This document shows, one piece after another, positions 15,064 to 24,467 of a stretch of 64,000 nucleotides of DNA. The notes beneath the pieces were generated by a model, which was not told the DNA's origin, ran no database searches, and saw only the letters and a list, made by a program, of their open reading frames with translations. The DNA is from an uncultured Planctomycetia bacterium (GTDB lineage Bacteria; Omnitrophota; Gorgyraeia; Duberdicusellales; Duberdicusellaceae): positions 16,203 to 80,202 of the forward strand of contig CAZWJT010000001.1 of assembly GCA_964634935.1 (NCBI GenBank). Direction: 5' to 3'. Made by a program: the position numbers and the translations under genes. The stretch's first letter is position 1, and every line of letters begins with the position of its first letter.

Positions 15064-15387
15064 TCATGCTGATTTCTTCTTCAAAGTATTCAGGCCTTTT
15101 ACGACGATAAAAATAGAGAATGCGACGATCAGAAAATCAATCAGGGTATTGATAAACTGGCCATAGTTTAAGGTTACTGCTGGGGCCTCCAGTGTAGCGG
15201 ACTTAAGAGTAAATTTAAGGTTCTTAAAATCAACTCCTCCTAAAAGTAATCCGATAGGCGGCATAATCACGTCAGAAACAAGAGAAGTAACAATCTTACC
15301 AAAGGCCGCTCCGATAATAATACCCACCGCCATATCTACGGCATTTCCCTTCACTGCGAATTCTCTAAATTCCTTGATAATCGACAT
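15064..15387 (-). CDS. mscL: large-conductance mechanosensitive channel
   Basis: [33 protein letters not shown], 107 aa: canonical MscL. Confidence 0.9.
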
Positions 15388-15404: not shown

Positions 15405-15911
15405 TCATGCTCGATGAATCAAAATTTTATCAGCAGTTATTTTTGCATTAGGAATAATAACGGTTTTATTGTCTCTTGTCTCCATGATTGTGCTGAAAAT
15501 CTGTATCTCTTTGACAATGCCGCTTGCTCCGCTTACTTCAACCTCATCCCCAACTTTAAACGGCTGAAAAAGAATCAACATCACTCCGGCGGCAAAATTA
15601 GCCAACGAACCTTGTAAAGCAAGCCCAACCGCTAAGCCAGCTGCTCCAATCAGCGCAACGAATGAAGTAGTTTCGATACCAAGCTTATTTAAAGCCGCGA
15701 TAGAAACAAAAATAAGCAGAATATAATAAATAATATTTTTTAGGAATGAAGAAAGCGTCTGATTCAGCTTTGCTTTCGCCATAACATTAGCCGCAATCCT
15801 AGAGACAAGTCGCGCAACCCATTTTCCAATAATAAAAATAAGAATGGCGTAGATAAAACTGAGACCGTATTGCATGAGGTAGGTTAGAGCCTTATCAAGC
15901 ATATCCTGCAT
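15405..15911 (-). CDS. short MscS-family mechanosensitive channel (TM3 and beta-domain only)
   Basis: GLAVGLALQGSLANFAAGVMLILFQPFKVGD followed by the beta-domain. The ORF ends at 168 aa with no C-terminal alpha-beta or barrel domain. Confidence 0.65.
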   Translation of the reverse strand: MQDMLDKALTYLMQYGLSFIYAILIFIIGKWVARLVSRIAANVMAKAKLNQTLSSFLKNIIYYILLIFVSIAALNKLGIETTSFVALIGAAGLAVGLALQGSLANFAAGVMLILFQPFKVGDEVEVSGASGIVKEIQIFSTIMETRDNKTVIIPNAKITADKILIHRA

Positions 15912-16080: not shown

Positions 16081-16590
16081 CTATGGACAATAAGGTATTA
16101 GACGCGGAATCCAACGGGGAACATGTTCCTTATAATCCTGATAATCCTTGCCAAACCTTCTCAACAAGCTTTTTTCTTCAAAAAAGGGAAGATAGATAAG
16201 GTTGGCTAGAAAAAATAGCAACATCCAGAAAAACAACAGCCAAGAACTAAATAGCAGAGACTCTCCCGCCAGCAAAAACAATACTCCAGTAATCATTGGA
16301 TTTCTCACAAATCTATAGGGCCCGAGAACAACTAATTTTTTAGGAGGATCCCAAGGAGCAGGAGTTCCTTTTCCTTTCGTAAGAAATAAACGGACTGTTA
16401 AGAATGCAAGTAACGAACCAATGAAAAAAAATATGAGCGATAAAAAAATATGATACCAAACCTGAGAAATAACATGATTTACCCCTACAAAAGTAGCTGA
16501 GATATAGAGAAGGACCGCGGGAATAAAAACAACTACGGTGCCAGGAAGAACGATGAGGGACATAAAAAGAGACCTTGCCCGCTGTGTCAC
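16081..16590 (-). CDS. ICMT/PEMT-family membrane methyltransferase
   Basis: 169 aa, 4-5 TM. C-terminal PYRFVRNPMITGVLFLLAGESLLFSS matches the isoprenylcysteine carboxyl / phospholipid methyltransferase family. Confidence 0.6.
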   Translation of the reverse strand: MTQRARSLFMSLIVLPGTVVVFIPAVLLYISATFVGVNHVISQVWYHIFLSLIFFFIGSLLAFLTVRLFLTKGKGTPAPWDPPKKLVVLGPYRFVRNPMITGVLFLLAGESLLFSSWLLFFWMLLFFLANLIYLPFFEEKSLLRRFGKDYQDYKEHVPRWIPRLIPYCP

Positions 16591-16679: not shown

Positions 16680-17891
16680 CTATAAATAAACTAAATCCTC
16701 TTTATGATACAAGGAAAGAAATAAAAGCATGTAATCCCTAAGGTGCCGCGTTAATAAAAAATTATTCCGGATATGCTCGCGCCCATTCTCTCCTAATTTT
16801 TTCGCATAGGCTGGGCTATTCAGCAATTGTTTTAACGCAAAAGCTGCTCCATCTACTGAATGACAAAGTAACCCGGAATATTTATGGGTAATTTGCAATG
16901 GAATACCGCCTACGTTTGAAGCCACTACTGGCTTTGCCTTCCATAAAGCCTCAGTAACCGTTAACCCAAATCCTTCCTTAAGAGACTTCTGAATCAGGAT
17001 TGTCGAAGCCCTCTGAATGGCATTTACCTCTAAGTCATTCTGCTGAAGAAGCAAAATATGGATGTCTGGATCATGTTTTGCTTGCTCTTGAACTTCCGCG
17101 TATACCTGCATACCCTCTGGATCATCGAGAGCAGTTCCACCCGCCAAAATAAGACGGCACTCAACATAGCGTTTTACTCTTTTATATGCCTCAATCACGC
17201 CAAGGGGGTCTTTAAGACGATCAAAACGCGAAATTTGCGTAAGTATCGGTTTATCGTTCGGTATCGAGTATTTCTCTAAAACTCTGCCAATCTCATCCTG
17301 TGAAAGCTCTTTATTCTTATCGCTTAATGGATCTATGGATGGGGCAATCAAAAACTGGCGGGTTGGAAATCTTTGCGAAAAGGCAGGAGCTGAAAATACT
17401 GCGGCATCATACTGGATGATAAAATCCCTTAAAAAATCCCATACCTGCTTGTCGGGATGTGAAACGTCGATATGGCATCTCCAGATCCATTTATTCCCGG
17501 CCCGCTTCTGTATCAGAGCAATAGGCTGAGGATCATGAATAAAAACAACATCCCCGTATGTGCGTACTTCTTCGATATTTTTCAAGCTTGTTTCCATAAA
17601 AATATCGAAATCTCGCTGAACCAAATCTTCCGGTTTCCCGTGTAAGGCGTTATGAAACTTCTTCGTAACCTCGAAAAACTGTTCTCCCCCTTTTATCACA
17701 TCCCATTTCGTTTCTACGCCTAATTCGTTTAAGAGAGGAACCATACGGTTTAGAATCTCCGCCACTCCGCCTCCAACAGCAGTAGAATTAATATGCTGAA
17801 TAACTTTCCCGCGTAAACGTTCAGAAAGAAGCCAAAGATCTTCAAGAATTGACTGCCCAACAATAGGTGCATACGCATCAAGCTTTATCAT
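16680..17891 (-). CDS. treT: trehalose glycosyltransferring synthase (GT4), TreT-like
   Basis: Blocks INSTAVGGGVAEIL, HDPQP, IWRCHID, IAPSIDPLS, TQISRFDRLKDP, DDPEG and QKSLKEGFGLTVTEALWK match the TreT family as remembered from Thermococcus/Thermotoga enzymes. Confidence 0.75.
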   Translation of the reverse strand: MIKLDAYAPIVGQSILEDLWLLSERLRGKVIQHINSTAVGGGVAEILNRMVPLLNELGVETKWDVIKGGEQFFEVTKKFHNALHGKPEDLVQRDFDIFMETSLKNIEEVRTYGDVVFIHDPQPIALIQKRAGNKWIWRCHIDVSHPDKQVWDFLRDFIIQYDAAVFSAPAFSQRFPTRQFLIAPSIDPLSDKNKELSQDEIGRVLEKYSIPNDKPILTQISRFDRLKDPLGVIEAYKRVKRYVECRLILAGGTALDDPEGMQVYAEVQEQAKHDPDIHILLLQQNDLEVNAIQRASTILIQKSLKEGFGLTVTEALWKAKPVVASNVGGIPLQITHKYSGLLCHSVDGAAFALKQLLNSPAYAKKLGENGREHIRNNFLLTRHLRDYMLLFLSLYHKEDLVYL

Positions 17892-18559
17892 TCCGTAATT
17901 CTCTCCTTAATTATGTTCAACAGCGTCGTTCTTAATCCTTCCATCGTTTGCGTATAAGGATCAAGCCGGGATATCATCCTGGCAAGCTGAATATCACCGA
18001 GCGAATGCTCAATCCAGTTTGAAAAATCATTATTGATGCGTTCAAGTCGAAGCCTCGCCTCGAAAACATGAAAATAGATTGAATCAATGGTTACTTTTCT
18101 GAGTGCTTCTTCAAACTCTTTTAAATCATAAACCTTATATCGCGTAGGTAGCACGAAACTAATTGATTTCATGAAATGAAATTCTTCGCCTGATTGAGAA
18201 AACCTTAAATGCGCTGTTTTATGCTCACTGAGATATTCTTCAATGGTAGCAACGATTTTTTCCCGCAACTGGCGTATTGTTCCATATTGTATCGTATCGA
18301 TACTCGCGAGTTTTTCTCCTAATTCATCCTCGCCTAAAACCTCAGTCACCCAATATGCAAAATCATTGGGAGGCTCTGGAGAAATATATTGATGCTGCTG
18401 TAAAAACCTGTGGGTATGGTGATAAATGCACGCGCCAGGAACTTCTTTAAGTAAGCCTGCTAAATGAACCAATGTAGCAGCGCGTAAACCGGTTAGCTCT
18501 GAAAGATTAAGCCTTGTCTGAAACTGGAAAGGTTCTTGAGCGCGCTTTAAACCACTCAT
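17888..18559 (-). CDS. hypothetical protein co-transcribed within the trehalose operon
   Basis: 223 aa with no recognised motif. Overlaps both neighbours by 4 nt (ATGA), which suggests translational coupling. Confidence 0.4.
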   Translation of the reverse strand: MSGLKRAQEPFQFQTRLNLSELTGLRAATLVHLAGLLKEVPGACIYHHTHRFLQQHQYISPEPPNDFAYWVTEVLGEDELGEKLASIDTIQYGTIRQLREKIVATIEEYLSEHKTAHLRFSQSGEEFHFMKSISFVLPTRYKVYDLKEFEEALRKVTIDSIYFHVFEARLRLERINNDFSNWIEHSLGDIQLARMISRLDPYTQTMEGLRTTLLNIIKERITE

Positions 18560-19347
18560 GACATATATCCTCTAATCTTCCGTAAAAATCTTATCACTTC
18601 TTTGATGTCGTTCAAGTGATATATGGCGGAAGTTTTCGCTGTGTATCCGACAACGATAGGAATTCCTTTTTTTCGAAGTACCCGAAAAGCATCCTCATCA
18701 GTTTTATCATCGCCAATATAAAGAACAAGGGACGCCTCTTGCTGAGGAAAGATGCTTTGTTTTAAAAGCCAAAGAATAATTTTGCCCTTTCCCCAGGCCA
18801 GAGAAGGCTGCACTTCCAGCACCATTTTTCCTGAATGGACCTTTACGATTCCCTGGAAACGATACGGCGCTGTTACTTTCTGAAAAATCATCTTCGCATC
18901 CTTGATGTTCTTTCTATCTACCAAACGATAATGATAACCCAATGAATATGTTTTATTTTCCAAAAAAACTCCAGGGATAGAAGCAGCGTTCTTTCGAAGG
19001 CGATTCTCAATCTTTCGAAGCGCGACCCGGTACGACCGTGTAATGGGCAACTTAAGCCGAAGGCCAAACCCACAAAGCTCAAAACCATGATTCCCGGCAT
19101 ACAATGCACGCCGTATTCCTATCCTCTTCTTTAAATCACTGAGTTTCCGACCGCTGATAAACGCTAATCGTATTTTTGGGATACGAGAAATCCGCCACAA
19201 TAGATTTCTCGTACTTCTTGCAAGCACAGCCCGTTTCGGCGTAGAAACAATTGGAGTTAGAGTCCCATCAAAGTCTAAACAAAACAGTATATTTTTTAAA
19301 ATAAGTCTCTTTTCGATCTCTGGAAAACTCTGGAGCGCGTGCTTCAT
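18556..19347 (-). CDS. otsB: trehalose-6-phosphate phosphatase (HAD-IIB)
   Basis: DFDGTL motif I, SGR motif II and GDDKTDEDAF motif IV. The start at MKHALQ leaves a 13-nt gap to otsA; the track ORF extends to 19434. Confidence 0.8.
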   Translation of the reverse strand: MKHALQSFPEIEKRLILKNILFCLDFDGTLTPIVSTPKRAVLARSTRNLLWRISRIPKIRLAFISGRKLSDLKKRIGIRRALYAGNHGFELCGFGLRLKLPITRSYRVALRKIENRLRKNAASIPGVFLENKTYSLGYHYRLVDRKNIKDAKMIFQKVTAPYRFQGIVKVHSGKMVLEVQPSLAWGKGKIILWLLKQSIFPQQEASLVLYIGDDKTDEDAFRVLRKKGIPIVVGYTAKTSAIYHLNDIKEVIRFLRKIRGYMS

Positions 19348-19360
19348 TATTGACACAAAA

Positions 19361-21598
19361 TCAAGTTTTTCGGAGAGAAACCAACTCGGTAACAATATTC
19401 CCAACCCAACGATAGATGTTGTTTGCAGAAACAATTTTTCTCATATTCTCCATACGTTTCTTTTTTTCTGGATCAGGCATTTCAACTGCGATTTTTATTG
19501 ACTCTGCAAACTCTTCAATTGCATACGGGTTAAATTGAACTGCATCCGTAAGTTCTCGAGCAGCACCAGTAAACTGGCTTAGAATGAGACTGCCGGATAA
19601 ATCGCTCTTACTTGCAACGTATTCCTTGGCAACCAGATTCATCCCATCATGTAGGGAACTGACAATGCAAAAATCGGCTAATTTATAAAAAGGCATAATT
19701 TCTTCGGCCGAGAAATGTTTTTTAAGATATACGATGGGCTTCCAATCTCCATCCATGTGTTTCCAGTTTTTCTTCTCCACAAGCTCATCAACTTCGGCGA
19801 TAAGATCGTGGTATCGTTTTATGTGCACACGACTTGGGGCAGCCATCTGGATGAAAGTCACTTTCTTCTTATAGTGAGGGTATTTTTCAAAGAATCTGTC
19901 AAGAGCTAAAATTCGCTCAATCAGCCCTTTTGTGTAATCAATTCTGTCTACTCCGATGCCGATGATCCTGCCTTCTAAATCAAATTCACTCTTGATCTTT
20001 GCGATCTGCCGCTCTAGAGGAGAATTATCACATGCTACGGGCATATCCTCTTTCACGCTGATCGGAAAAGCCTTAATAAATGTTTCTTTCTGTGAACGAA
20101 CGACGCTGAATTTCTCCGTGTCTACTCTTGACTCAAGAAGCCGATTTACAGTATCCAAAAAATTATTACAATGATTTTGTACATGAAAACCGATCAAATC
20201 ACACCCGAGCATTCCATCAAGCACTTCTTTCTGATATGGGCATATTGCGAATGATTCTGGGGTAGGCCACGGTATATGCCAAAACAAAGCGATAATCGCA
20301 TCCGGCCTTCTCTCCTTAATCATCTTTCCCAACAGGGTAAAGTGGTAATCCTGAATGAATACAAAAGGGGCAGTCGCAGGCAACTCAGCTATGATACTAT
20401 CAGCAAACTTTTGGTTTACTTGCTTATACATAATCCAATCAGATTCTCGAAAAATAGGGCGGGTATGCGTATTATGACAAAGAGGCCAGAGCCCCTCATT
20501 AGAAAACCCATAATAGTAACCGTCTTCTTCTTCTTTAGTAAGCCAAATCCGCTTAAGAATATACCTGTTGTCTTCCGGAGGAACCCCAAGCTTATCTTTC
20601 GAATTAACGAATTTTTTATCCGCGTTTCCAGCGCCATGCGCAATCCATGTGCCGCCACAAGCGCATAAAATCGGATGAATGGCAGTAACAACGCCACTCG
20701 CCGGTTGTATGCAACGAGCTATCCCTGTTTCCTCGTCAGTAACGTGCATATAGGGCTCACGGTTAGAGACGACAAATAACGAATTCTCTCCTAACTTTGC
20801 TCGCACAAGATCTCTGAGCTTTGCCTCGGTCCAAGCTTCGTCTTTTTGGAGACGCTCTGAAGCTTCTTCCGAGACTGTTCGGCGTGCGATACGTAAACTC
20901 AAAGCAACCTGTTCTACTTCACTTGCCAGCTTCCCAAACTCTCCGTGTTCTTTGATAGGATGCAATTCGTCCGTCTCTCCCTTTTGAAAGTGCGAAAACC
21001 ATACCGTCAATCGTTCAACCGGCAAGGAAAAAATCTGCCTGTGAAGAAAAATCGCTACGATGAAAATAGCAATAACAAGAATGACAAGTGTTACACTGAT
21101 TCTTCGCCAAATCTCAATGAGTCGAGCAAACACATAGGAGGTGTCATGGATAACCTCAACAAGACCAAGAAGCAAGCCCTCTTCATTAACAATCGGCAAC
21201 AAATAACTATATACCGTATAATCCTTAAATTTTTCAAGCTCTCCCCGAGGGATCTGGGTGGACAAAACATCCGGGAGATACGGTTTTTCTTTTTCTTTCC
21301 AATCACTGAATCTTTTCGTGATCGCAATAATTTCTCCTGAAGCATTATACAAAACACAACCTTGCAACCTCTCCCGTGTTTCAAACTTCTCAACTAAATA
21401 ATTAGCATGCCGCATGTTCTTAGCAGTAAAAACCCCCTGGGCCGAAAGCTCCATGCTCTCAGCTATATGTTTTGACTTTCTCTTCAAATCATCAAGAAGC
21501 CTCTCTTCTTCAAAATGAACCTGAAAGTAACCAAACAACGTAAACGCTGCTGTTACAACAATGAGGATTGGAAGAATAAAAAGTAAAACGCGTTTCAT
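19361..21598 (-). CDS. otsA: fusion protein: N-terminal 2-TM periplasmic sensor + HAMP-like linker, C-terminal trehalose-6-phosphate synthase (GT20)
   Basis: Residues ~250-745 carry SLFVVSNREPY, WPLCH, WIQDYHF, GIGVDRIDYTKGL and SLHDGMNLVAKEY (OtsA). Residues 1-250 have TM1 (LLFILPILIVVTAAF), a ~140-aa extracytoplasmic domain, TM2 (VTLVILVIAIFIVAIFL) and an amphipathic linker. Confidence 0.85.
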   Translation of the reverse strand: MKRVLLFILPILIVVTAAFTLFGYFQVHFEEERLLDDLKRKSKHIAESMELSAQGVFTAKNMRHANYLVEKFETRERLQGCVLYNASGEIIAITKRFSDWKEKEKPYLPDVLSTQIPRGELEKFKDYTVYSYLLPIVNEEGLLLGLVEVIHDTSYVFARLIEIWRRISVTLVILVIAIFIVAIFLHRQIFSLPVERLTVWFSHFQKGETDELHPIKEHGEFGKLASEVEQVALSLRIARRTVSEEASERLQKDEAWTEAKLRDLVRAKLGENSLFVVSNREPYMHVTDEETGIARCIQPASGVVTAIHPILCACGGTWIAHGAGNADKKFVNSKDKLGVPPEDNRYILKRIWLTKEEEDGYYYGFSNEGLWPLCHNTHTRPIFRESDWIMYKQVNQKFADSIIAELPATAPFVFIQDYHFTLLGKMIKERRPDAIIALFWHIPWPTPESFAICPYQKEVLDGMLGCDLIGFHVQNHCNNFLDTVNRLLESRVDTEKFSVVRSQKETFIKAFPISVKEDMPVACDNSPLERQIAKIKSEFDLEGRIIGIGVDRIDYTKGLIERILALDRFFEKYPHYKKKVTFIQMAAPSRVHIKRYHDLIAEVDELVEKKNWKHMDGDWKPIVYLKKHFSAEEIMPFYKLADFCIVSSLHDGMNLVAKEYVASKSDLSGSLILSQFTGAARELTDAVQFNPYAIEEFAESIKIAVEMPDPEKKKRMENMRKIVSANNIYRWVGNIVTELVSLRKT

Positions 21599-22677
21599 GA
21601 GAAATTCTTCTCCTGGTTGTAGTTCATTGCCCGAATAGGATAAGGAATAACGATCCCCTCTTTTTTATAACGGCTATGGAGCGCTTTAATAAATTCATGC
21701 TTGACAAGATGCTGATCGACAAATTCTTGAACTCGCAAAATAACTGTAAAATTAATGCTAAAATCACCGAAAGTGTGATAGCGGATAAAGGGGTCGAAAT
21801 CTGGAATGCCTCCCGGGACGATCCGCATAATATCCTTGGCTACCTCACGCGTAATGTGTTCTACTTTCACCAAATCACTTTGGTAATGTACTCCAATATT
21901 TACCAAAACAGCAAGCTCCTTATCTGGTAAATAATAATTCGTAATTATCGATTTGGTCAGTTTTTCGTTCGGCACGAGTATGGCATTATTTGGAAGCATC
22001 CGTATTTTAGTAGTACGCCAGGTTATATCCATCACATACCCCTCTTCTCCTGTTTCGAGTTTAATATAATCGCCGATTTTTACTTGCCGTGCTATGATAA
22101 TATAAAATCCAGAAAAGATATTAGAGAGGGTATCTTGTAACGCCAAAGCAACCGCTAAACTCCCTATGCCCAAAGTAGCCAAAAGCGGAGCAATAGAAAG
22201 CCCCAGGCTGTTCAAAATAATGAGTATTCCTATAGCGAAAATAACCGTCCGACTAATATTTTGGGTGAGCGAGGTTATCGGAAGGGTGGTTTGGATCTTG
22301 TGAGAATACACCCGAATCACACGCGTTGAAATATGCCCCAAAACCAGCATAACCGAAACAACTCCGAGAATAAAAATTGCCTTCTCTACGCCCACAATAA
22401 TCTCTCCTGGAAAACGAGAAATTGCAAGCCCAAAATACGCACCAAGCATAATAAACCAAAGAAGAAAAGGACCCCTTACTGCTTCAATAATAATGTCATC
22501 AATCTGAGACTTGGTGTGCTGAGACCATTGAACCAATCTCTGAAATAAAAATCTCCGTGTACTATACCCGCAAAGGAGTGTAACCAGAAAAACAAGCAAT
22601 GGATTGACAATAAGAACCAGATTTTGCGTAACATACTCCCAAAACATATTCCTCCTGCTCTTAAAATAAAAAGCCAC
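21595..22677 (-). CDS. MscS-family mechanosensitive channel
   Basis: 360 aa, 4-5 TM. Pore helix GIGSLAVALALQDTLSNIFSGFYII, then a beta-domain (VKIGDYIKLETGEEGYVMDITWRTT). Confidence 0.8.
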   Translation of the reverse strand: MAFYFKSRRNMFWEYVTQNLVLIVNPLLVFLVTLLCGYSTRRFLFQRLVQWSQHTKSQIDDIIIEAVRGPFLLWFIMLGAYFGLAISRFPGEIIVGVEKAIFILGVVSVMLVLGHISTRVIRVYSHKIQTTLPITSLTQNISRTVIFAIGILIILNSLGLSIAPLLATLGIGSLAVALALQDTLSNIFSGFYIIIARQVKIGDYIKLETGEEGYVMDITWRTTKIRMLPNNAILVPNEKLTKSIITNYYLPDKELAVLVNIGVHYQSDLVKVEHITREVAKDIMRIVPGGIPDFDPFIRYHTFGDFSINFTVILRVQEFVDQHLVKHEFIKALHSRYKKEGIVIPYPIRAMNYNQEKNFS

Positions 22678-22902
22678 CTTGCGTTATTAAGCAAGATGGC
22701 GGCCCGACCATCAAAAAACCTCCAGGAGAATTATTCCTGGACCCAAATCTTTTTTACTTTACTATTTCGTTCTGTCGCTGAGTCTTATTTTCTGATCGCT
22801 TCTTGCATATCGTTCAGCGCTTGGATGTAGGTTGTTGAATGTAAATATAAGTTTATTATATACAAAAAAAACTTTTCGGCAAGGATGAATTCAGCGAGAA
22901 AC

Positions 22903-23708: not shown

Positions 23709-24467
23709 TTAAACCTCTTTTACCTCAACTGAGGCGTTTCCATCAAATGGATTAGTCCGCATTGCCAATGAGAAAAGATATGGATAATCATTCTTCAAAT
23801 GCCGCATATAATCAAGCCATTGTCCAAGAATCTGATGATAAACCCGCTCAATATCTCCTAAAAGATGCTGCCGGTCTTGAGCGTATAGGTTGCTTACATC
23901 TTTTCTCTGTACAAGTTCATCAGTCAGATGAAAAACTGCCCAAAGCAAATTTGTGAACGATTCATGCTCCAATAAATTCGGATTCTCCAAAAGCACCAAT
24001 AAAAACCCCCTTTTCCTTACAAGAAAATCCTTGATTTGGCAAAGGTCTTTCGATGTAGCAAGAAAACGAGCTCTATAATCGCACACGATTCTTTGTACTC
24101 GTAAAAAATCGCGATGGGACCATTCCCTGGTAACTACAAGCTCTTTACTGACTGCTCGAATATTGGCATCAATTTGCGCGCATTGCCTCATAAGCTCTAT
24201 GCCAACTTCGCTAAAAAAAGTTCCGATAACCATATTGAGTTTTCTCAGGATTGATTTTTTCTCGCGATATTCAAGCAAACGGTGCAACACGAGCATCACG
24301 ATAAGCACATCGATAAATAGAAAGGCAATATCCCCAATCAGATATAAGAAAATATGGTGCGCATCGCGGAAGATAAAATAATGAATACAGTAAAAAACCG
24401 TGGATAGGAAAATAAGAATAAACCCAAGAATGATTTGTCCGCTAAAGAAACGTCTGAGGGTACTCAT
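23709..24467 (-). CDS. hypothetical membrane protein
   Basis: 252 aa. Two N-terminal TM helices, then a soluble domain with no recognised motif. Confidence 0.4.

Follow-up and report, generated by a model that had tools for sequence, protein, structure and literature searches.

Can a trehalose-6-phosphate (T6P) synthase be controlled directly by a receptor module in the cell membrane? This question is raised by an open reading frame (ORF) of 745 aa in a stretch of 64,000 nucleotides, hereafter called the window, from the genome assembly of an uncultured Omnitrophota bacterium (GCA_964634935.1, contig CAZWJT010000001.1, positions 16,203 to 80,202). The ORF encodes a T6P synthase (OtsA) preceded by an N-terminal sensor, and its product is referred to here as sensor-OtsA. 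Like soluble OtsA (E. coli structures 1gz5, 1uqu and 2wtx; 5jij), it possesses a full GT-B domain of glycosyltransferase family 20 (GT20) with its active-site residues, and its gene is followed by an OtsB gene. Unlike these cytosolic enzymes of about 455-500 aa, it carries a membrane sensor of 273 residues in front of the catalytic domain. On the basis of sequence comparisons and predicted structures, we consider it rather probable that sensor-OtsA is a receptor-type T6P synthase in a cation-induced osmoprotection operon and that its sensor gates the enzyme.

Gene structure and translation of the N-terminal extension

The initial annotation had placed the extension at 20833-21598 (-), which corresponds to residues 1-255 of the 745-aa ORF at 19361-21598 (-), and had described it as two transmembrane (TM) segments enclosing an outside domain of about 140 aa. 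Hydropathy bore out this topology: Kyte-Doolittle windows above 1.6 are confined to residues around 1-29 and 160-194, and the interval between TM1 and TM2 is about 139 residues (Table 1).

An annotation artefact would reduce the protein to an ordinary soluble OtsA whose true start lies near residue 250-284. The internal codons GTG265 and ATG284, as well as some shorter database entries (534-582 aa), could be taken to favour this reading. However, ATG284 is the sole internal ATG close to the GT20 boundary, and it is located inside the GT20 fold and after the catalytic Arg280. The ATG of sensor-OtsA at 21598 overlaps the TGA stop codon of the upstream MscS gene (ATGA) and is preceded by AGGAG. 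Of the complete orthologous ORFs, 66 out of 68 encode 742-756 aa, and these 66 share the aligned start M[KR]R[IV][LF]LF[IV]LPIL, with ATG used in 65 of them and an in-frame stop 0-42 codons upstream of the orthologue starts. In comparisons of residues 1-270 with six orthologues, the proportion of synonymous differences (pS) was saturated (0.81-0.94; 0.87-0.99 in the periplasmic part), whereas that of nonsynonymous differences (pN) was 0.14-0.19, giving a pN/pS of about 0.16. The 270 codons upstream of the catalytic domain are thus conserved at the protein level at saturated synonymous change, and in every retrieved locus with room for it the N-terminal match continues in frame and without gaps into the GT20 match. 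The fold of the extension was also predicted with confidence. Because of the start/stop overlap, the shared orthologue starts and the low pN at saturated pS, we regard the start codon as real and the extension as translated, and the artefact as practically negligible. No internal start was found that could replace it; this candidate was ruled out by the conservation of the orthologue starts and by pN/pS. An assembly chimera was ruled out as well, as the fusion is present in every locus with room among 80 independently assembled loci.

Identity of the sensor module

When the whole window protein was searched with Pfam, GT20 (residues 274-739) was the sole match above threshold, and neither a HAMP nor a Cache domain was detected at E<=0.1. 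The initial annotation had proposed a HAMP-like linker and an outside sensor domain, and both were recovered at the level of the family. Among 45 aligned relatives, Pfam matches at E<=0.01 were obtained for sCache_3_2 in 28, dCache_1 in 22, dCache_3 in 17, HAMP in 12 and CHASE8 in 11 proteins, with best E-values of 2.5e-6 for sCache_3_2 and 1.5e-6 for HAMP. One relative that is itself a fusion (P0211) passes the HAMP cut-off with 26.5 bits, and co-linear histidine-kinase homologues reach 44-58 bits (E 1e-13 to 1e-15). The NCBIfam model of the WalK kinase matches residues 2-250 of sensor-OtsA (E 7.7e-7). A family profile searched against PDB sequences gave weak matches to the extracellular domain of WalK/YycG (5is1; E 0.016) and to the HAMP domain of Af1503 (E about 0.1), besides one spurious CBS match.

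Structure prediction pointed in the same direction. The AlphaFold2 model of residues 1-270 (monomer; 45-sequence alignment; pLDDT, the predicted per-residue confidence, 84.5) has a long helix continuous with TM1, a five-strand PAS-like alpha/beta core (residues 79-152), a helix comprising TM2 and the first HAMP helix, AS1 (154-206), a loop (207-219), and a helix formed by the second HAMP helix, AS2, and beyond (220-251). With Foldseek, the top PDB match was a full-length WalK model (query-normalised TM-score 0.67 over 261 columns). Target TM-scores were 0.74-0.76 for the WalK extracellular domain and 0.71-0.77 for CitA and DcuS, all with a probability of 1.00; KinD and DctB were also among the sensor-domain matches at the same probability, and the target TM-scores of the set ranged up to 0.77. 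Directly after TM2, the arrangement typical of HAMP is present, namely a helix, a connector of about 14 residues and a second helix, and the hallmark positions P193, G207, G222 and E227 show little or no variation. The N-terminal module is therefore predicted to consist of TM1, a single-Cache/PDC domain, TM2 and HAMP.

The periplasmic domain contains a lone cysteine, Cys81 (codon 21356-21358, -), in the motif RERLQGC. It is invariant in the Omnitrophota-type clade; neither the distant fusion clades nor the kinase paralogues have it. Cys81 might form a disulfide between subunits or act as a redox site.

Distribution and relationship to histidine kinases

Relatives of the sensor module are widespread. 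In a GTDB scan with residues 1-270 as the query and one genome per species, at least 286 species genomes were found to encode a relative of the module, and 80 loci were retrieved. The fusion is present in every retrieved locus with room for it, mostly in Omnitrophota. The Acidobacteriota protein PYV27934.1, annotated only as 'trehalose-6-phosphate synthase', also carries the fusion, which therefore extends beyond Omnitrophota. Databases contain hundreds of sensor-OtsA proteins under the name 'trehalose-6-phosphate synthase', and one entry of the Joint Genome Institute (JGI) is named 'trehalose-6-phosphate synthase/HAMP domain-containing protein'. The database search suggested by the initial annotation thus recovered the fusion in other genomes, and sensor-OtsA is no singular protein: the fusion is common, being present in every retrieved locus with room. 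The first homologue search with residues 1-270 had yielded only fragments of up to 472 aa, with the window protein itself missing; full-length relatives came from a profile search of a representative library and from a search with GT20 as the query.

When 1.84 billion representative proteins were searched with the profile of the sensor module, 1808 matches were obtained, 301 of them below 1e-10. The long matches included both GT20 fusions (P0093, P0113, P0151, P0174, P0211 and the 913-aa P0102) and kinases with HAMP, HisKA and HATPase domains (P0155, P0179, P0198, P0187, P0222 and P0167). Matches of the kinases extend over the entire module (residues about 7-260), with profile E-values of 1e-17 to 1e-23, and in the alignment their homology spans AS2 and some 12-15 further residues. 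Past this point the two groups part: the kinases lead into the H-box, and the fusions into W-T-x-x-x-L...(L/F)(F/I/Y)VV(S/A)NREPY. No Pfam match to HisKA or HATPase was found in sensor-OtsA, and the alignment puts GT20 in their place. As genuine histidine kinases also carry this sensor module, GT20 occupies the place of, and has replaced, the kinase core made up of the dimerisation and histidine phosphotransfer (DHp) and catalytic ATP-binding (CA) domains.

The kinase-type input topology that the initial annotation had recognised is in this way explained by homology over the whole length of the module. Sensor-OtsA shares topology, fold and order of parts (TM1, sCache/PDC, TM2, HAMP) with the inputs of WalK/YycG, CitA and DcuS, but unlike these kinases it lacks DHp, HATPase and the phospho-accepting His box, and it has a glycosyltransferase instead. 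It is a protein with a kinase-like input but not a two-component protein.

One kinase with the same sensor, P0155, is encoded at L082:6001-8851 and is followed by a sigma-54-dependent response regulator. Its gene is divergent from an alpha-glucan cluster of GH77, GlgB, alpha-amylase and GH57 genes (L082:370-5714). This single example hints that the sensor family may report alpha-glucan or carbon status.

The GT20 catalytic domain

The catalytic domain expected after the linker is present in full length: Glyco_transf_20 (PF00982) matches residues 274-739 with 391.5 bits against a cut-off of 32.5 (E 6.9e-117), from position 3 to position 471 of the 473 in the profile. Among solved structures, the OtsA of M. 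thermoresistibile is the closest (5jij; E 4e-78). For the comparison of active sites, we used an E. coli OtsA sequence identical to 2wtx_A and a list of residues which we take to be those that bind substrates or act in catalysis in the E. coli structures. In E. coli numbering, R9, G22, Y76, W85, D130, H154, R262, K267, R300, D361, M363, N364, L365 and E369 are invariant in all 73 fusions compared, and F339 is kept in 66 of them, so that 14 of the 15 active-site positions are invariant. A pseudo-enzyme was ruled out, the active-site residues being intact.

The protein missed the NCBIfam equivalog cut-offs of both TIGR02400 (412.9 vs 564.85 bits) and PRK14501 (463.4 vs 634 bits), and it therefore represents a divergent OtsA subfamily. 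Because the residues that bind glucose-6-phosphate (G6P) are conserved and an OtsB gene follows, we infer T6P specificity for the GT20 domain. In soluble OtsA, the N-terminal domain is mobile, the enzyme adopts open and closed states, its oligomers differ between species and there is allostery at interfaces (PMC6879718); the catalytic domain could therefore plausibly be a target of sensor control. Where the regulation of known OtsA proteins has been described, it is exerted by metabolites at protomer interfaces (PMC6879718).

Conservation of the sensor and of its spacing to the enzyme

If the module were only a membrane anchor or a dimerisation scaffold that carries no signal, Cache and HAMP would be structural remnants of a kinase ancestor, and the module would simply bring T6P synthesis to the membrane's inner face, for instance near MscS, OtsB and TreT or for local protection of the membrane. 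The clear derivation of the fusion from a kinase-type module suits this explanation, as does the presence of a membrane protein, MscS, next to it in the operon. The related system of Thermoproteus tenax works by complex formation and not by sensing (PMC3634074), and no ligand can be named for the sensor. However, a TM helix alone would suffice for an anchor, yet the 139-aa periplasmic fold is kept at 61% identity to the window protein (66 orthologues) with the pN/pS given above. In the same comparison the identity was 53% for TM2, 75% for HAMP, 66% for the linker and 75% for GT20, HAMP thus being as conserved as the catalytic domain. These values indicate that purifying selection acts on the sensor.

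Spacing was compared in 73 fusion proteins, including clades that are only 41-44% identical overall. The distances W164-P193 (29), P193-G207 (14), G222-E227 (5), E227-R239 (12) and W256-N279 (23) are the same in all 73 proteins, and R239-W256 measures 17 in 70 of them. Indels are confined to the HAMP connector. The hallmark positions P193, G207, G222 and E227 and all helix lengths are accordingly fixed across distant clades, which would be the pattern expected of a transmission device, not of a spacer. In addition, W200 in AS1 and W256 and L261 in the linker are invariant in the fusions and missing from the kinase homologues. In the full-length model (monomer; pLDDT 84.7, predicted TM-score (pTM) 0.69), helix 220-249 is followed by a short break, helix 258-269 and strand beta1 (274-278), which leads straight to Arg280. 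We consider a silent anchor unlikely, and favour a sensor that gates the enzyme through this connection.

Operon organisation

Sensor-OtsA is the second gene of a predicted operon of overlapping or closely spaced genes on the minus strand (Table 1). The first gene encodes an MscS-family channel, for which all three Pfam domains (MS_channel_1st, MS_channel_2nd and MS_channel_3rd) were above their cut-offs. The mechanical start of this ORF is GTG 22677; as a terminator hairpin spans this codon, we prefer ATG 22647, which has AGGAGG six bases upstream. In about 25 of the 80 loci, MscS either immediately precedes OtsA or stands between it and OtsB. OtsB (TIGR00685, 165.6 bits vs 68; Pfam Trehalose_PPase, E 1.5e-42) follows sensor-OtsA in nearly all 80 loci, with 35-47% identity. 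The start of the next gene overlaps the OtsB stop. Its product is a DUF5752 protein (PF19027; E 2e-67, 227 bits vs 23), which matches OrfY of T. tenax (PDB 4cso) over residues 6-205 (E 1.1e-21); 'transcription factor' is for 4cso the depositors' label only. This gene follows OtsB in nearly all loci, where it lies between OtsB and TreT, and with 54-74% identity it is more conserved than OtsB. No paper on DUF5752 was found and searches for OrfY returned nothing relevant, these searches being mostly outside subscription journals. The last gene, whose start overlaps the DUF5752 stop, encodes the trehalose glycosyltransferring synthase TreT (PF21269 TreT_GT1, E 6.7e-56, 188 bits, together with Glycos_transf_1). 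It matches the solved structures 6zj4 (Thermoproteus; E 4.4e-119) and 2x6q (E 1.4e-100), and it stands directly after DUF5752 in 51 of 52 loci with room. MscS, sensor-OtsA, OtsB, the OrfY-like DUF5752 protein and TreT thus form a conserved cassette. With OtsA/OtsB and TreT in one operon, two routes of trehalose synthesis are co-encoded.

The msc-gt-tpsp operon of T. tenax is the only experimentally studied parallel that we found. There, a partner protein of glycosyltransferase family 4 (GT4) activates a soluble fusion of T6P synthase and phosphatase (TPSP) by complex formation; in the model proposed, trehalose is synthesised on stress and released through the channel on down-shock (PMC3634074). 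The window cassette is similar in that T6P synthesis is linked to an MscS-type channel and in that an OrfY-family protein and TreT are present, but the T. tenax system has neither a membrane sensor nor a riboswitch. The linkage to msc has been stated to be unique to Thermoproteales (PMC3634074); since the window cassette has it, this linkage is not unique to them. Because a partner GT4 protein activates TPSP in T. tenax, TreT might by analogy be a binding partner of sensor-OtsA.

The same analogy could be carried further, with the sensor controlling the assembly of a trehalose complex (OtsB, TreT and the OrfY-like protein) or the MscS channel and with a constitutive GT20 domain. Besides the activation of TPSP by a partner glycosyltransferase from an operon encoding an MscS-like channel, the invariable co-occurrence of OtsB, OrfY-like and TreT genes and the high conservation of the latter two speak for such a role. 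W256 lies at a fixed distance of 23 residues from the VSNR motif, and the module is covalently joined to beta1, both of which point instead to GT20 as the target; in addition, MscS is missing from the immediate cassette in most loci. We regard control of assembly or of the channel as distinctly improbable compared with gating of the GT20 domain.

A riboswitch ahead of the operon

The 225-nt gap upstream of MscS contains an nhaA-I aptamer (RF03057; 51.9 bits vs a gathering threshold of 37, E 2.3e-7), the sole Rfam family above gathering in the 64 kb. An intrinsic-terminator hairpin lies next to it, and the 3' arm of stem P2 of the aptamer doubles as the 5' arm of the terminator, forming an expression platform. 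In the minimum free energy (MFE) fold of the leader, P1 forms together with the terminator hairpin in place of P2. The predicted layout of the leader is that of a ligand-activated (ON) transcriptional switch, and the riboswitch with its terminator appears to gate transcription of the operon. For the sigma-70-like promoter candidate farther upstream there is only the match to the consensus, and the region has no excess of promoter-like sites over shuffled sequence.

A covariance model built from 13 aptamer copies was run on the related loci and detected 63 copies, all on the operon strand. In 62 distinct sequences, 96.5% of the cells were paired and 11 of 15 pairs were compensatory; none of 500 shuffles scored as high. 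The aptamer ends less than 400 nt (typically 42-52) before sensor-OtsA or MscS-sensor-OtsA in 37 of the 74 loci with room, and it is found one gene further upstream in 12 more. In one locus, the gene between the riboswitch and sensor-OtsA (L006:5095-5766) encodes a lipoprotein of 223 aa that has a coiled coil and, by eye, an OmpA-like C-terminus. Several loci contain a second nhaA-I-type aptamer about 1 kb downstream of TreT on the same strand (L010:11035-11087, L013:10940-10996, L016:10939-10992, L019:10940-10998, L028:10932-10985, L046:10985-11040, L030:12012-12065 and L072:11997-12052); the window has one copy. The second aptamer precedes a 96-aa ORF in L016, and no ORF of at least 80 aa starts within 300 nt of it in L010, L013, L019, L028 and L046.

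White et al. described nhaA-I RNAs as Li+-activated switches, of which rare terminator-bearing variants respond to Na+ (Na+-II; dissociation constant (KD) about 1.4 mM), and a C-to-U change (C54U) broadens the Na+-II response to Li+, Na+ and NH4+ (PMC9646797). The genes associated with nhaA-I included otsA in 16 and mscS in 3 of 944 cases, and an osmotic role was speculated (PMC9646797). The terminator-bearing variants were reported only in Deltaproteobacteria, ahead of genes of unknown function (PMC9646797); unlike these, the window type occurs in Omnitrophota-type genomes, upstream of a defined operon. The window aptamer resembles the Na+-II RNA of D. propionicus in its P1 base (GGGUCC...GGAGGU) and in its intrinsic-terminator platform. 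Unlike that RNA, it has U instead of C at the putative specificity position (GGUCGGGCC vs AGCCGGGCC), where 'position 54' was inferred from a comparison of the consensus with the oligonucleotide published for D. propionicus and was not read from a figure. In view of the abundances of ions in cells, a response to Na+ is the more plausible physiological reading of the aptamer.

Table 1 Predicted features of the sensor-OtsA operon and its leader, in window positions
Feature	Position	Strand	Basis
nhaA-I (Li+-I/Na+-II type) aptamer	22694..22744	-	Rfam RF03057
Sigma-70-like promoter candidate (TTGCCG, 16-nt spacer, TATAAT)	22855..22882	-	Consensus scan, 10/12 matches
Intrinsic-terminator hairpin (10 bp) with T-run	22663..22700	-	Terminator scan
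MscS-family channel, probable start ATG 22647	21595..22647	-	Pfam, sequence reading
Sensor-OtsA gene: TM1, sCache, TM2, HAMP, linker, GT20 (745 aa)	19361..21598	-	ORF, Pfam, NCBIfam, models
TM1, residues ~4-24, MKR before it	21527..21589	-	Hydropathy; helix in models
Periplasmic single-Cache/PDC-like domain, residues ~25-163	21110..21526	-	Pfam matches of relatives, Foldseek, profile
TM2, residues ~164-187	21038..21109	-	Hydropathy peak 3.3; continuous helix 154-206 in models
HAMP, residues ~188-240 (AS1 from P193, connector 207-219, AS2 from 220)	20879..21037	-	Relatives, model
Linker, residues 241-273: AS2 extension, short break, amphipathic helix 258-269	20780..20878	-	Models, invariants
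GT20 catalytic domain, residues 274-745	19364..20779	-	PF00982
OtsB, probable start ATG 19347 (mechanical ORF: TTG 19434)	18556..19347	-	TIGR00685, Pfam
DUF5752 protein, OrfY homologue	17888..18559	-	PF19027, PDB 4cso
TreT trehalose glycosyltransferring synthase, 403 aa	16680..17891	-	Pfam, PDB matches

Genomic surroundings

Downstream of the operon, the window encodes a PEMT-like methyltransferase (16081-16590), a 168-aa MscS-type protein (15405-15911) and MscL (15064-15387), all on the minus strand. Together with the MscS of the operon, three mechanosensitive channels are encoded within 8 kb. Upstream of the cluster, a 252-aa membrane protein with no Pfam match (23709-24467, -) adjoins YceI, ZIP and YbjQ genes; one related locus has a counterpart with 63% identity upstream of its cassette (L046:4377-5123). 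All 55 gene-sized ORFs of the window (positions 1-64000; greedy non-overlapping map, at least about 90 aa) are on the minus strand. The GC skew is negative in every 2-kb bin, and the co-directional stretch is unusually long.

Proposed mechanism

For the gating we propose the following. A dimer-forming input module (TM1, single-Cache, TM2 and HAMP) would be joined by a linker of fixed length to strand beta1 of OtsA. A signal, received by the periplasmic Cache domain or arising within the membrane, would shift TM2, and the HAMP bundle would convert this shift into a change of helix packing. The change may pass through the AS2 extension and the W256 helix to beta1, which carries Arg280, the presumed equivalent of the G6P-binding Arg9 of E. 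coli OtsA; alternatively, it may alter the relative arrangement of two GT20 protomers. In either case, the switch of T6P synthesis could operate at the membrane in a matter of seconds, with no phosphorelay involved. Via the riboswitch, a rise in cytoplasmic Na+ (or Li+) would induce all genes of the operon, and MscS would serve as a mechanosensitive valve that vents solutes on down-shock. The system would thus be layered, with RNA induction by an internal cation, protein gating by an external or envelope signal, and the MscS valve.

Several observations weigh against such a circuit. In the window protein itself, the excised HAMP segment scores 15.2 bits against the 25-bit cut-off of PF00672 (E 0.028), and sCache_3_2 scores 12.1 bits against a cut-off of 28.4 (E 0.22); the HAMP and sCache assignments were made from its relatives and from the predicted structure. 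The models do not contain one continuous signalling helix: a break at residues 250-257 separates the AS2 extension from helix 258-269. No aptamer was detected upstream by the covariance model in 25 of the 74 loci with room, and the RNA and protein layers of control are therefore not obligatorily linked. The U of the window aptamer fits the Li+-type consensus and not the Na+-selective C variant, and it resembles the C54U mutant. Finally, we know of no precedent for the control of a GT-B glycosyltransferase by HAMP.

Comparison with known receptor-enzymes and implications

Receptor-enzymes as such are a known concept. In HAMP-coupled adenylyl and diguanylyl cyclases, for example those of the mycobacterial Rv3645 type, an extracytoplasmic or TM input is connected through HAMP to a dimeric catalytic output. 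Sensor-OtsA follows the same logic of input, HAMP and enzyme in one polypeptide. Unlike the cyclases, whose output is a second messenger, its output is a metabolic glycosyltransferase that makes the precursor of a compatible solute. As both halves of the protein belong to known families, the combination is new but not of a new kind.

The initial annotation had been aware of no characterised sensor-OtsA fusion. Likewise, we found no paper describing or testing a fusion of a sensor with a T6P synthase, and none that describes the extension as an OtsA feature of known function, in searches mostly outside subscription journals. For trehalose in Omnitrophota, the literature yielded general statements that the phylum encodes trehalose synthesis, and no more was found. 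As to the broader proposal, that Cache-HAMP on a GT-B OtsA constitutes a new class of one-component receptor-enzyme which, together with a Na+/Li+ riboswitch, makes up a two-input circuit conserved across Omnitrophota and sharing MscS, OrfY and TreT with Thermoproteus, we hold the chances for and against to be evenly balanced.

HAMP domains are understood almost wholly through kinases, chemoreceptors and cyclases. If the proposed gating is true, the same conformational signal of HAMP can gate a primary metabolic enzyme, and the formation of T6P would provide a simple read-out of HAMP signalling. A long-standing question of osmoadaptation is how bacteria start the synthesis of compatible solutes only seconds after an osmotic or ionic stress. 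Here a single small cassette, amenable to cloning, encodes a predicted sensor, an enzyme, a release valve (MscS) and an ion-sensing RNA. The linkage of MscS to trehalose is extended beyond Thermoproteales, and the nhaA-I riboswitches associated with otsA, which had before only been tabulated, gain a defined gene context. The uncultivated phylum Omnitrophota would thereby gain a concrete and conserved stress module.

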